Shown piece by piece: positions 36,325 through 40,946 of a stretch of DNA of 59,427 nucleotides. Both the position numbers and the translations under genes were made by a program. This stretch comes from an uncultured Marinicella sp. (GTDB taxonomy: Bacteria > Pseudomonadota > Gammaproteobacteria > Xanthomonadales > Marinicellaceae). The stretch's first letter is position 1; the number at the start of each line of letters is the position of its first letter. The notes under the pieces were generated by a model. That model made no database searches. It was not told where the DNA came from and saw only the letters and a program-made list of their open reading frames with translations. The DNA lies in the NCBI GenBank assembly GCA_937942365.1, contig CALDFB010000276.1, positions 1 to 59,427 on the forward strand. Direction: 5' to 3'.

Positions 36325-37032
36325 TTATTTTTTTGGTACATATACATATTTTCTTATTTCTTCAACAACTTCCGGATATAAGAAAAAAGAAGAATTCTCT
36401 GCTAAAAAATAATTAGGCAAAGTTACTGTCTTTCTTCTTCGCTTTGTAAAGTATATATTACTCCAAATTAAAGCTGTTCGTGCTCGGTGCTGCTTATTAT
36501 CTAAAACTTTTTCAATAAACCCATTCAATACCAATAAATTTTCTTTGGTTTTATTGTCAGTTTGTTTGAGTAGTTCTTCGAATTTAGGAAGTAAAGGGAC
36601 ATTTTCCGTTCTTAATGAATAATTATAAAGAATTGAATTACAATACCGCCTTAGTTCCCAAACCACTCGATCTAGATACACCACTTCATGTTCATGTAAA
36701 TACCACGAGACTTCCATATACCTATATTTAGCATTAGTCTCTTCTAAACGTTTTAGGAATTTATCCGATTGATCTGAGATCTTTATATCAATGTGACCTG
36801 ACAAAATTTCTAGTGTTCTTCTTACCTCGTGTCCTAAGGGTGGTTTTGGCTTTGGAGTTCGGCTTAATAAAATAATACACTTCGCATATTTTTCTAAAGC
36901 ATGTAATGCAGACCAGTGAAACTGAGGGATTAAAGCAGAACGATATGCCATACGCGCATGAATGTAATCCTTATCTGCGGTGTCTCTAAGCCCTCTAAGA
37001 GCATAATCATTTATTTTATCGTTAATATTCAT
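36325..37032 (-). CDS. HEPN-domain protein
   Basis: ADKDYIHAR...ALEKYAKC...LGH pattern typical of HEPN; AT-rich. Confidence 0.7.
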   Translation of the reverse strand: MNINDKINDYALRGLRDTADKDYIHARMAYRSALIPQFHWSALHALEKYAKCIILLSRTPKPKPPLGHEVRRTLEILSGHIDIKISDQSDKFLKRLEETNAKYRYMEVSWYLHEHEVVYLDRVVWELRRYCNSILYNYSLRTENVPLLPKFEELLKQTDNKTKENLLVLNGFIEKVLDNKQHRARTALIWSNIYFTKRRRKTVTLPNYFLAENSSFFLYPEVVEEIRKYVYVPKK

Positions 37033-37068
37033 ATTCGCTTTGAGGTTTCTTTCTTGAATGCTTGATAT

Positions 37069-37513
37069 GGTATACCAAACTTGGCTTGTTAATCGGGTAA
37101 ATTATTAACCGACGAAAGCTCTAGCCTAGATTCCTGCCACTCGCCTAGGCTCGGCTGAAATGACGGTGGTTGATTAGCTTTCTAGATTGGAAAATCTAAC
37201 TGCTTCACCCTGCATTAAGCTTAAGTAACTAAAGAACAAAAGAACGTCATTGCGAAGGAGGTACGACTGCGGCAATCTCCATAAATCTGGTGTAATGCTT
37301 TTTGTATAAATTACCTTTGCTTTACGAGATTGCCGCGGTCGTTTCACTCCCTCGCAATGACACCGATTTTTACTCTTTCCCAACGCTCCAGCGTGGGAAT
37401 GCATAGGGATGTTCATGTTAAGTTTAACTCATCAATCAAATTAATCGTTAACCTGAAAAACCTTCTGCCTGGATTCCTACTAACTCACTTAGGCTCGGCT
37501 GGAATGACGGTGG
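37069..37513. repeat. Mosaic cluster of REP/RPE-like repeats (C+B, A, D, B)
   Basis: 37069-37166 is the reverse homolog of 12547-12640; A 37246-37361; D ~37374-37406; B 37455-37513. Confidence 0.8.
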
Positions 37514-37549
37514 TTTTTTTGAACTTTTAACCTTTGGAATGTTTACTGA

Positions 37550-37745
37550 TGTGCAGTTAAGTGTTTTTGAAACCAGTGGCTCATCCTTGAGCGTTTTAAT
37601 CCTTTTGATTCCTTTATATGTTTAGCAGGCAGTTAAGTTTTAAATCTCTTGTTAACTTATATCCTTGAACTCGTCCTGGAGTGTTATCTTCCTTTTAATT
37701 CCTTTTTTACCTATTTAAGAGAGGGAGTTTTTTAACTGCCTTATT
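37550..37745 (-). ncRNA. Candidate CsrA/RsmA-sequestering sRNA (boundaries approximate)
   Basis: Seven AGGA motifs in 120 nt on the minus strand, two in hairpin loops; three-motif module repeated at a 90-nt period. Confidence 0.6.
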
Positions 37746-37916
37746 TATATACTCGTAAAACAAGTCCAAACCTTGTCAAAATAATTGAATTATTTTTAAT
37801 TTATTTGGTGGCAGTTAAGGGTTTTTCATGAACAGCGCTATATATTGGGTGTTTTGAGGGTGGTTTTATTTGACAAATTTTCCATGGTATTAAAGTAGAC
37901 ACTATTTTATTTTCAA

Positions 37917-37988
37917 TGGATAGTTGGCTTCAGCCAACCTGTATAACTAATGATTCTAAAACCTGTTGACTAAAGTCAACAACCCAAA
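37917..37988. repeat. Family-E REP doublet
   Basis: gttggcttcagccaac ... gttgactaaagtcaac; homolog of 12694-12769. Confidence 0.7.
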
Positions 37989-38116
37989 AGTGGGTCAAAT
38001 ATTCTTCAAAACCTTAAAGATAAATGTGTAGCAACTAAAAGCCTTGCACTAAAAGGGCATAGTTTTAACTAGCGAACTGAAACAATAAATCATTCATTCT
38101 AAGTTTTTTGGATTTA

Positions 38117-38174
38117 GAAAAACCTTCTGCCTAGATTCCTGATCTCGCCTCCGGCTCGTCTGGAATGACGGTGG
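38117..38174. repeat. Family-B repeat, direct repeat of 37455-37513
   Basis: gaaaaaccttctgcct(a/g)gattcct...ggctcg(t/g)ctggaatgacggtgg. Confidence 0.75.
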
Positions 38175-38387
38175 GTTTATTGGCTTTTCTAGTTTTGTGA
38201 TTCTATTAACCCGTCTACAAAATACCGTACGTTTCAGTCTAAGACAGTTCGTTCGTAGCGCCAAGGGACTTGTATCTTAGAAAAGTGTCTATTAATCAAC
38301 AATGGTTTAGACTATCCAATGGCGATTGGATAAAGGGATAGTGATACTCATAACTGTCATTTTCTTTCTTTGAGTTTTTTAGTCTGG

Positions 38388-40946
38388 TTAGCTACTTTCT
38401 AGGGTGACAAATACATTGCTGAAATCGCACTTTTTTAAATCGCTTTTATGAATTACAAAATACAAGTCTCCAGCATCTCCCCAGCTCATATCACCTGTAG
38501 AAGTTACTTTTAAAAGTGTCATCCAATCTTGAGGTTGTCCTTTTTTCTTTAAGGATGCTTGTAGTTCTGGCATTTCGTTTTGGGTAAAGCCATACGCATT
38601 TACCGCATAGTCATGAGGATACGCCCTAATTAAAGGCCCCTCAAAATCGTCGTATATAGCATCAAGTAGTTGCTCATTATCTAGTAAAGTTTCAGCTTCG
38701 CCTTCGAATAAATGTGTATTTACTTTTCTGCAATACATATCAGGACAGCTACTCATTTTTTCAGCATTTACCTTATGGCCTTCATACTCATTACCTGACA
38801 TTTCTGAATAGTCATCTTCTTCAAATTTAAATCTTTTACCAGACGCTAAGGTTTTAGTGTCTTCTACATATAGTATTTTGCATGAGGTATCACTTTCATC
38901 ATAAACACTATGAATGGTTTCTAAAAAGAAAAACAGCATGCCTTTTCTTGGTAAATAGCCTTGTAAATGTGCTATCGCTGTACAGTTAATTTGCCCTATA
39001 AACTCGTGAATATAGTCTTTCTTCTCGTCATGCCAATTGTCACCAAATCTTGGGTACGGCATATCTTCTGGTAAATCTGGCATACCGCCAAAACGGTGAT
39101 TTCCTATAGTTGTGTAATCTTCTTTCTCAACATGCTGAAAACTGATGCCTTTTTTAATGAGCGAAAGTAGGGATGTCGAATGTTCTTGTAATTTACTTTT
39201 AGTAACTATGGTTTTTATTTCGGGAAGTAAGTCGCAGTCATGTTTGACATAAAATACCTTGTCTTCCCAAGAAACTAAACCTTTACCATCTGCGCCTTTG
39301 TACTCATAATCTAGAAGGCGTAACTTATCTTCCATAGCCATTTCCAATGTTTTTATTGTATTGAAGATGCCAGGAAGCGTTTCTAATGGGTTATTTTCAA
39401 TAGCAATTGCTGTTAGCTTGGGTTGTTTTGCCAGAGATTCTGGTAAGGTTATAAATTGATTGTTATTTAAACTGATCGTTGTAACTGCTGGTAGGTTTAT
39501 TTTTTCTGGAATGGCAGATAATTGGTTTGTATCTAGCGATAAATAGTCTAATTTGGGCAACTGCCAAACCTCGTCTGGTATGGCTTCTAATTCGCAGTTA
39601 TAAAAAGATAAACGTTCTAACTGCTTTAGCTTCACGATACTTTCAGGAAGCGTTTTTAATGCTGCTTTCTGTATGTAAATGCTTTTTAATTTGCTGAACG
39701 TACCTATTTCTGCTGGTATTTCATTGAAAGGTAATTTCTCCTTGTTTCCATGATTATTAACAGTGAGCTTCTCTAAATTTTTAAAATTAAGAAAGGTTTC
39801 AGGAAATTTTGAAAAACTGGGATTGGTAAGTGATAGAAACCGAACATCTTTTGGGTTTGTGGTGGTTGTTTCTTCCATGGAACTAAAATGATAATCTTTC
39901 CACTCTAAAGGAGTCGTATCAAACTTCTTCGCTATTTGTATAGGAAACGCTTTATCATGATACGTTTTGGTCATTTCACCATTAACCAAAAACCAGCCAT
40001 CTTTAAGACATACATTACCATTAAAATCTAGACGATAATCAAATCCTTCTATATCTGAACGTAAGAAAAATGGTGCTTCCGTTTTACCTTCCTTGAATTG
40101 AAATTCTCCTGTAGGAACACCATTTTTGTGAATACCTTGAAAGGGGATTGAAATTTCTACTTCTCCATTGTCTTCATAATCATCTAAAACCGCTGCTTTT
40201 ATTGCTTTCTTAGGTGTTTTTGCTTTTGCCTTAATGGTTACATGTAGTTTGTTTGAGTAGTCACTTATTATCATTTGGCAATCAACTAAAATAAAATCAA
40301 AATCACCTACTGTAAAAAATGCATTATCCTTATCAGGAATTGCAATAGATTTAAATGTTTTAGTTTCTTCGATACTGTAATTATCATCTACATCATCACT
40401 GTAATCATCACCCATATCACCAAGCATATCATCTAGTCTTTTTTCATAGGCTTGCGCATCGGCTTGACGTTTTTTCGCATCTGCAAGCACTGTTACAGAA
40501 TTCAGGCTATGCTTGGTCCAATCTTCTAAAAACCCATCTTTAGTAACCTCATGTATACTTATAAATGAGATAAAATCTACCTCATCTATTAAAATGATGG
40601 CAAACAAATAATGTAAATTACATTGTTTATCTAATACTTTGGTATTTACTTTGGCCGACAGTGTTAAGGCTTTACAGCCATTGATAGTAATTTCTTCAAC
40701 AGCGCTTATATCCTTCTGATTTTCTTCTGTAAGGTAATAATTGATCATTTTTTCTGAGAACGTGGTACCTTTTATTTCGTCACTATTAAAGTATTTTATG
40801 TCCTCTATACTAAGCCTTACAGAATGTGGGTGTATGGTAAATGGAATTTGACTGCTTCTGGAAAGTGCTATTATTTCTGAACTGGTATACTCATCAAAAG
40901 TATTTGGTACTTCAAAACTAAAAAGTGGGTGTTCTATTTTTTTCAT
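38388..40946 (-). CDS. Leucine-rich repeat + YwqG/DUF1963 domain protein
   Basis: LRRs (LPESIVKLKQLERLSF, LSLDTNQL, LNNNQF); RFGGMPDLP, FIGQIN, LPRKGMLFFF, WGDAGDLYFVI. Confidence 0.85.
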   Translation of the reverse strand: MKKIEHPLFSFEVPNTFDEYTSSEIIALSRSSQIPFTIHPHSVRLSIEDIKYFNSDEIKGTTFSEKMINYYLTEENQKDISAVEEITINGCKALTLSAKVNTKVLDKQCNLHYLFAIILIDEVDFISFISIHEVTKDGFLEDWTKHSLNSVTVLADAKKRQADAQAYEKRLDDMLGDMGDDYSDDVDDNYSIEETKTFKSIAIPDKDNAFFTVGDFDFILVDCQMIISDYSNKLHVTIKAKAKTPKKAIKAAVLDDYEDNGEVEISIPFQGIHKNGVPTGEFQFKEGKTEAPFFLRSDIEGFDYRLDFNGNVCLKDGWFLVNGEMTKTYHDKAFPIQIAKKFDTTPLEWKDYHFSSMEETTTTNPKDVRFLSLTNPSFSKFPETFLNFKNLEKLTVNNHGNKEKLPFNEIPAEIGTFSKLKSIYIQKAALKTLPESIVKLKQLERLSFYNCELEAIPDEVWQLPKLDYLSLDTNQLSAIPEKINLPAVTTISLNNNQFITLPESLAKQPKLTAIAIENNPLETLPGIFNTIKTLEMAMEDKLRLLDYEYKGADGKGLVSWEDKVFYVKHDCDLLPEIKTIVTKSKLQEHSTSLLSLIKKGISFQHVEKEDYTTIGNHRFGGMPDLPEDMPYPRFGDNWHDEKKDYIHEFIGQINCTAIAHLQGYLPRKGMLFFFLETIHSVYDESDTSCKILYVEDTKTLASGKRFKFEEDDYSEMSGNEYEGHKVNAEKMSSCPDMYCRKVNTHLFEGEAETLLDNEQLLDAIYDDFEGPLIRAYPHDYAVNAYGFTQNEMPELQASLKKKGQPQDWMTLLKVTSTGDMSWGDAGDLYFVIHKSDLKKCDFSNVFVTLESS

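Follow-up and report, generated by a model that had tools for sequence, protein, structure and literature searches.

Does the minus strand of a 1.35-kb intergenic gap in an uncultured Marinicella genome encode an RNA that sequesters CsrA? The gap (positions 37033 to 38387) lies in the 59,427-nt stretch of DNA analyzed here (the window), which belongs to a 3.39-Mb assembly of 91% completeness denoted G000; other G codes designate its Marinicella genus mates, and C designates a contig. Two minus-strand open reading frames (ORFs), at 36325 to 37032 and 38388 to 40946, flank the gap, and the element lies downstream of what we take, from Pfam matches, to be ubiG- and gph-like genes. The ORF at 36325 to 37032, of 235 amino acids (aa), has no Pfam or NCBIfam match and is, judging by eye, presumably HEPN-like. 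An initial annotation, made from the sequence alone, had proposed that the gap holds a Csr/Rsm-type sponge RNA built from a duplicated module of three GGA motifs.

A duplicated AGGA module in an intergenic gap

All seven plus-strand TCCT motifs on which that proposal was based (37584, 37600, 37610, 37662, 37674, 37690, and 37700), each an AGGA on the minus strand, are present. Seven AGGA within 120 nt is the highest density in the 3.39-Mb genome, where the next best stretch holds five, and dinucleotide shuffles average 1.86, with 0 of 3,000 attaining seven. The duplication also stands, with its 90-nt offset and a 36-nt repeat of 81% identity, but the unit comprises four GGA sites, not three, in the order GGA, GGA, hairpin GGA, and GGA, the fourth of which has been lost from the second copy. 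Module 1 (37662 to 37703, minus strand) carries AGGA at 37700, 37690, 37674 (inside a hairpin at 37669 to 37682), and 37662; module 2 (37579 to 37613, minus strand) carries AGGA at 37610 and 37600, followed by the hairpin GCUC-AAGGAU-GAGC (37579 to 37592), which is the best CsrA-consensus site and is invariant in close copies.

The longest minus-strand ORF overlapping the element is 20 aa, and we rejected a small-protein reading on that ground. We predict a minus-strand noncoding RNA of about 170 to 200 nt (37545 to 37743), the 5' end of which is placed by the promoter-like motif described below; conservation across the family stops near 37570. REP-like palindromes in the same gap have about 20 similar copies in G000, and one such repeat (37455 to 37515, unstranded), just downstream of the element and outside the family, could bound the 3' end.

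A family of GGA-rich elements in Marinicella

BLAST recovered a full paralog in G000 (on contig C172), a paralog of the 3' half (on C333), and homologs in relatives. A covariance model built on 11 copies, which match it by construction, yielded full-length matches (E values of at most 1e-12) in 10 of the 24 Marinicella genomes, four of the matched copies lying outside the model. Among 20 genomes from the other genera of the bacterial family, matches are weak only (E values of at least 0.003), and the 6 matching genomes in an order-wide sample of 151 all belong to Marinicella. In an rpoH tree, the 10 carriers all fall inside one 14-genome clade (support of 97/93), and none of the 10 genomes outside it carries the element.

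Together, 15 copies hold 112 GGA motifs (1 to 20 each), versus 0 to 2 per copy on the opposite strand, and the longest homolog, that of G003, spans 403 nt with 20 GGA. Across the 112 sites, position -3 is C in 56, -2 is A in 88, -1 is a purine in 92, +3 is U in 57, and +4 is G in 47, a C-A-R-GGA-U-G context that fits the CsrA SELEX consensus RUACARGGAUGU, reported with short stems and hexaloops in the available text of PMC7652899. The hairpin common to the copies covaries: 90.9% of alignment cells are paired, with five two-sided changes, a result that none of 500 shuffles matches and that slid controls (14 to 49%) do not approach, although the test is inflated by the relatedness of the sequences. 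A strand test based on G-U versus A-C asymmetry gave only 4 versus 2.

The bare 12-mer of the hairpin, CTCANGGATGAG, occurs in 39 of the 44 genomes of the bacterial family and was dropped as evidence because most occurrences lie in coding DNA or in an unrelated palindromic repeat. Metagenome scans gave no matches to the promoter pattern and 23 to the hairpin pattern; none of the latter is accompanied by the promoter motif, and all were discarded.

The csrA locus and a probable assembly gap

The csrA gene, for which the initial annotation proposed to check the genome, has no match in G000 itself but is present in 19 of 23 genus mates, where its product is nearly identical to CsrA/RsmA proteins of solved structure. 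Six of the 10 RNA-bearing genomes encode it, and the remaining four share a probable assembly gap. In relatives, csrA sits between alaS and tRNA-Ser(GCT)/Arg(ACG); G000 lacks both alaS and tRNA-Ser(GCT), and its contig C64 starts inside tRNA-Arg(ACG). Because the essential neighbor alaS is missing as well, the absence of csrA from G000 most likely reflects an assembly gap. True loss in the clade of G000, G012, and G017 was rejected, since in all five csrA-negative assemblies alaS is missing or the contig ends at alaS. As a separate observation on tRNA genes, ARAGORN calls a tRNA-Pyl(CTA) in G000 (C25, 8911 to 8993) that is probably spurious.

Rows of the motif bound by CsrA, conserved and noncoding, are therefore likely to form an RNA decoy for CsrA. 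Conservation in 10 genomes, the CsrA-consensus context of 112 sites, stem covariation, and csrA in relatives, to which a weak full-length match of the longest homolog to the Rfam CsrB model can be added, all support the sponge reading of the initial annotation. We put at roughly 80% the probability that the element is a CsrA-sequestering RNA and represents a lineage-specific family of Csr/Rsm-type sponges.

A rigid promoter-like motif upstream of the array

The TTGACA reported upstream of the element (37774 to 37779) is present, and a sigma-70 scan agrees with the initial annotation that it has no well-spaced -10, calling no promoter there. Compared across homologs, this orphan hexamer resolves into a conserved motif with a rigid spacer, TGACAAG-N16-CGWNT. 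In the window, the -35-like TGACAAG (37772 to 37778, minus strand), which takes in the TTGACA, is preceded by an A/T tract, and its TGAC and AG are invariant in 11 to 12 homologs; the -10-like CGAGTA (37750 to 37755, minus strand) follows after 16 nt, and its CG..T is invariant in alignments. All copies share TTTTGACAAG-N16-CGWNT, one of them with two extra spacer bases. G000 contains 12 occurrences at a spacer of 16 (9 of them intergenic), versus 0 to 3 at each alternative length between 11 and 22. Promoters recognized by extracytoplasmic function (ECF) sigma factors typically have an invariant 16-nt spacer and a CG-led -10, and it is likely, from this architecture, that some ECF sigma reads the motif.

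A position weight matrix scan returns nine sites of 32 to 40 bits, against a background of 13.6, although this exercise is circular. In G000, the motif stands upstream of two RNA copies, two Ser/Thr kinase genes, and genes for proteins that by eye are of exported type: a 4,248-aa RHS-repeat protein, a leucine-rich repeat (LRR) protein, and two small signal peptide-like ones. Seven motif-linked sites in this genome (C98:6502, C109:13055, C135:26388, C312:12907, C315:40, C172:1665, and C134:1438), ahead of the two kinase genes and four genes for probable exported proteins, constitute a candidate small regulon. The 4,248-aa protein has weak matches to RHS, SpvB, and TcdB domains. In its strictest form, the motif is confined to RNA carriers, with 7 of the 24 genus genomes having it. 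At five of seven sites in G023, the -10-like element reads CGTTTAT in place of CGAGTAT, and the sigma of this genome has a different region 2 loop, a possible case of promoter-sigma coevolution.

The motif also bears on the best surviving alternative, a conventional Csr sponge whose transcription depends on sigma-70 and an activator, for instance a UvrY/GacA-like regulator, in which the TTGACA would serve as a genuine -35 or belong to an activator site. The hexamer is perfect, a TATAAA lies 24 nt beyond it, and a UvrY/GacA-like gene, for which the initial annotation also proposed to check, is present in five of five genomes examined (272 to 275 bits, just under the cutoff of 280); in many Gammaproteobacteria, BarA-UvrY orthologs activate Csr RNAs, as stated in the available text of PMC7652899. 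Against these points, a -10 at sigma-70 spacing is absent, and the kinase and exported-protein genes share the rigid element with its CG at 16 nt. Within 250 nt upstream of each of 15 copies, the best match to a GacA box consensus has 4 to 5 mismatches in 12 positions, and the sCache_4 domain of BarA/GacS-type kinases is found in none of five genomes, with a positive E. coli control. The GacA/UvrY control implied by the initial annotation is not supported at a locus with no upstream box and a promoter-like motif that is ECF-like, not sigma-70-like, and we regard it as unlikely.

Linkage to ECF43 sigma-kinase pairs

The motif adjoins one group of TIGR02999/ECF43 sigma genes paired with Ser/Thr kinase genes. 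In G000 (C134) and G017 (C22), it separates the sigma gene from the kinase gene, as it does twice in G023 (C6), there each time with an RNA copy; in G005, sigma, kinase, and one further gene precede a motif with its RNA; in G003, the motif occurs three times after sigma and kinase, with the RNA about 22 kb further; and in G008, a truncated relic of the linked sigma lies about 2.8 kb upstream of the RNA. Three genomes that lack an intact close ortholog of this sigma, G004, G008, and G022, also lack the motif in its strict form. The C134 sigma of G000 passes TIGR02999 (184 bits; cutoff, 126) and has a Hanks kinase gene directly behind it. The linked sigma carries QTTE at the phosphosite motif, for which a consensus of QTTA has been reported (PMC13147305, available text), and the kinase that follows bears TPR repeats. 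According to the available text of PMC13147305 and PMC8999054, the adjacent kinase activates an ECF43 sigma by phosphorylating it.

Several observations temper this linkage. The published predicted ECF43 promoter motif, with GTC in the -35 and CAG in the -10 (PMC7826278, the part of the supplement available), is not matched by the TGACAAG and CGAGT found here. In G012, the assembly of which comprises 530 contigs, the 10 strict motifs are accompanied only by a sister-type sigma (54%); the sigma of G007 is cut by a contig end, and G024 has related sigmas with neither motif nor RNA. The motif-linked sigmas are not resolved as a clade of their own in an ECF43 tree, and the co-occurrence of sigma and RNA is not independent evidence because the carriers all fall in one 14-genome clade. 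Transcription of the element by a Marinicella clade of ECF43 sigmas encoded beside Ser/Thr kinases may be given, on this gene neighborhood, at best an even chance. G000 has about 15 ECF43-type sigma genes, most of them beside a kinase gene. A conventional, autoregulated ECF sigma was also considered and rejected, as the motif is found upstream of neither the C134 sigma nor any of the eight other sigma family loci examined in G000.

Predicted fold, 3' end, and gene neighborhood

Both GGA-loop hairpins described in the initial annotation are complementary, but they fare differently in the predicted ensemble: the hairpin at 37579 to 37592 forms with P of 0.96 to 0.98, whereas that at 37669 to 37682 has P of about 0.05 in the window copy, as the UCC of this hairpin is taken up in pairing to the GGA at 37690. 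The 5' arm, AGGCAGUUAA (37732 to 37741, minus strand), had been given two alternative partners. Pairing with the 3' arm, UUAACUGCCU (37627 to 37636, minus strand; 10 of 10 positions complementary), is predicted with P of about 0.9 and closes a long-range stem around module 1, and UAACUGCC of this arm is retained in five of five close copies; in most homologs, the 5' arm forms a short local hairpin instead. We rejected the other fold, with a second UUAACUGC (37553 to 37560, minus strand), as its P is about 0.08 and the second complement carries mutations in G012 and is missing from the C172 copy of G000 and from G017; this unconserved stretch makes most sense as a remnant of the module's tandem duplication. 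An integron attC or invertase site reading of the GGCAGTTAA repeats, considered by eye, was set aside, as only the pair at 37732 and 37627 is conserved.

The folding energy of the whole region is no better than that of shuffles (z = 0.03). In the window copy, the probability that a GGA is unpaired ranges from 0.24 to 0.99 (at least 0.6 for four of seven and below 0.5 for the other three), and 10 of the 20 GGA in the G003 copy are unpaired with P above 0.9. Each copy opens with a variable 5' stem, the hairpins of homologs differing in sequence. Behind this stem lies a conserved, anti-Shine-Dalgarno-like pyrimidine box, CUCCCUCUCUU (37717 to 37727, minus strand), and a run of at least seven pyrimidines occupies this fixed place in 12 of 15 copies. 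Such a box would suit a dual-function or base-pairing small RNA (sRNA) that pairs with the Shine-Dalgarno sequence of a target and uses the GGA array as a secondary CsrA site, for which McaS and GadY, base-pairing sRNAs that also bind CsrA (PMC7652899, available text), provide precedent. We find this improbable: predicted folds pair the box within the RNA itself (in the window, with AAGAGA at 37645 to 37650, P of about 0.8), it is missing from two copies holding 9 to 10 GGA, and an Hfq-type terminator is lacking.

The initial annotation saw no clear terminator, and a minus-strand terminator scan of the element likewise finds none; a canonical 3' intrinsic terminator is absent from all 14 copies scanned, the window copy included, and the last GGA hairpin is followed by an offset U-run in only 2 of the 14. 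At the other end, the 5' hairpin with an offset U-run passes the terminator rule in 5 of 14 copies; in the homologs of G004, G005, G007, and G022 (two copies, G022a and G022b), the hairpin is followed by CCUCUUUU, which is terminator-like and lies ahead of the GGA array. A CsrA-responsive cis leader or attenuator, with the 5' hairpin and CCUCUUUU tract acting as a pause site or weak terminator, would account for this arrangement and for the missing 3' terminator, and in G008, G000 (C172), and G023 copies do sit immediately ahead of same-strand genes. In six copies, however, the gene that follows is convergent, and those copies therefore cannot be leaders. Moreover, a separate copy of the promoter motif precedes the C172 kinase gene, and the next same-strand ORF in the window begins about 750 nt after the -35, past the REP-like repeats. 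Convergent neighbors, and neighbors that vary from genome to genome, favor a stand-alone RNA, and a leader is less probable still than a base-pairing sRNA.

Least probable of all is a dispersed, nonfunctional repeat, or passenger DNA carried along by variable islands, that is GGA-rich by accident. In its favor, there are 1 to 4 copies per genome in unrelated contexts, often beside REP- or MITE-like repeats, their distribution is patchy (10 of 14 genomes in the clade), and the bare hairpin 12-mer recurs in coding DNA and within an unrelated palindromic repeat. Against it, the copies share no terminal inverted repeats, keep their GGA context and covarying stem while spacers diverge, confine GGA largely to one strand, and hold a fixed position behind the promoter-like motif.

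Comparison with known Csr/Rsm RNAs and a proposed circuit

The CsrA-sequestering RNA that we favor resembles CsrB and CsrC (RF00018) of Enterobacteria and Vibrio as an intergenic array of CAGGA and AAGGA in short hairpins and single strands, and the G003 homolog matches the full RF00018 model on the GGA strand (E = 0.0023), although at 24 bits against a gathering threshold of 71. At gathering thresholds, the window has no Rfam match, and even the best homolog stays below that of RF00018. Unlike CsrB and CsrC, the element has no detected UvrY box or intrinsic terminator and consists of a 5' stem and CU box followed by one to three four-site modules in tandem. With RsmX, RsmY, and RsmZ of Pseudomonas, it shares a length of about 100 to 250 nt, 4 to 10 GGA, and several paralogs per genome, but there is no sequence match, and the upstream motif is TGACAAG-N16-CGWNT. 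RNAs of the RsmX/RsmY/RsmZ type are also found in Legionella.

Of the five criteria by which Kulkarni et al. 2006 (PMC1488887, available text) recognize Csr/Rsm sRNAs, the element displays two, an intergenic location and a high density of AGGA/ARGGA (7 in 120 nt), and lacks two, a Rho-independent terminator and a conserved upstream UvrY/GacA site (judged by a 12-position consensus); the Pseudomonas-type site described there is 18 bp long. On the fifth, exposure of GGA in loops or unpaired stretches, the predicted folds are mixed. We therefore do not file it as CsrB, RsmY, or RsmZ, though it most likely works as they do. Within the same order, Xanthomonas campestris has the RsmA-sequestering RNA RsmU (sRX061), and a homology search in Xanthomonas found no CsrB/Rsm homologs although CsrA/RsmA is present (PMC7694677, available text). 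As far as the description there allows comparison, RsmU is processed from a 3' untranslated region and has 3 to 4 GGA, whereas the Marinicella element has its own promoter-like motif and, in most copies, 4 to 20 GGA. The family thus adds a stand-alone Csr-type candidate to the order of Xanthomonas, one that occurs in a cultured strain: M. sediminis strain F2 (record L061) has two copies, with 10 and 9 GGA, behind an ORF for a QTTE-type sigma. A literature search that covered few subscription papers returned nothing on Marinicella together with CsrA or a Csr-type RNA.

The observed motif array, its conservation, the stem covariation, the rigid upstream motif, and the linkage to ECF43-kinase pairs point, somewhat better than evenly, to the combined picture of a minus-strand RNA of about 190 nt that would sequester CsrA dimers and be transcribed from an ECF-type, most likely ECF43, promoter. 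In the circuit that we propose, an envelope signal would activate the TPR-bearing Hanks kinase, which would phosphorylate the ECF43 sigma at its QTTE motif; the sigma would then transcribe the kinase gene, the genes for exported proteins (the giant RHS-repeat and LRR proteins), and the GGA RNAs, which would titrate CsrA and lift its translational repression. The sigma and kinase are like EcfK/PknS of Xanthomonas citri and EcfP/PknT of Vibrio parahaemolyticus in combining an ECF43 sigma that has the phosphosite motif (here QTTE) with a kinase, here one with TPR repeats, behind the sigma gene. The outputs reported for those two pairs, polymyxin resistance and a type VI secretion system, are different, and the available text describes no Csr RNA target. 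Among titles and the openings of abstracts, we found no ECF43-driven Csr RNA.

More tentatively, we picture an accordion-like family of CsrA sponge genes, ranging from one four-site module to 20 GGA, that may be transcribed directly by a phosphorylation-activated ECF43 sigma. If so, input to the Csr system would come from a Ser/Thr receptor kinase instead of a BarA/GacS histidine kinase, a different route into Csr control that runs from kinase to sigma to sponge RNA and couples CsrA release to the expression of exported RHS- and LRR-type proteins. TGACAAG-N16-CGWNT would then be a concrete promoter for an ECF43 clade and, with its small regulon, would provide a consensus for a little-studied sigma group. 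Without the ECF43 link, the family would be one more lineage-specific Csr RNA.

Other sequences noted in the genus

Four further kinds of sequence were noted in these genomes. In G012 (L022, on C423), the promoter motif and a degenerate RNA copy are separated by an element of about 290 nt that is bounded by terminal inverted repeats and has an internal repeat resembling positions 38237 to 38270 of the window. An intergenic GGA-rich stretch in G007 (L177, on C385) has 8 RGGA in 350 nt without the promoter motif of the family. A separate tandem repeat of about 46 to 50 nt, which we take to be probably a GTAG-type REP, occurs in G003, G018, G020, and G006 (L170, L171, L174, and L176) and on C19 of G015 and is absent from G000; it contains the perfect hairpin CCUACA-AGGA-UGUAGG, matching the CsrA SELEX core, and might provide CsrA sites in addition to those of the family. 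Finally, an unrelated dispersed palindromic repeat in G002, G006, G011, G019, and others (L094 to L103) ends in a single CUCA-NGGAU-GAG hairpin and explains many of the hairpin-pattern matches.
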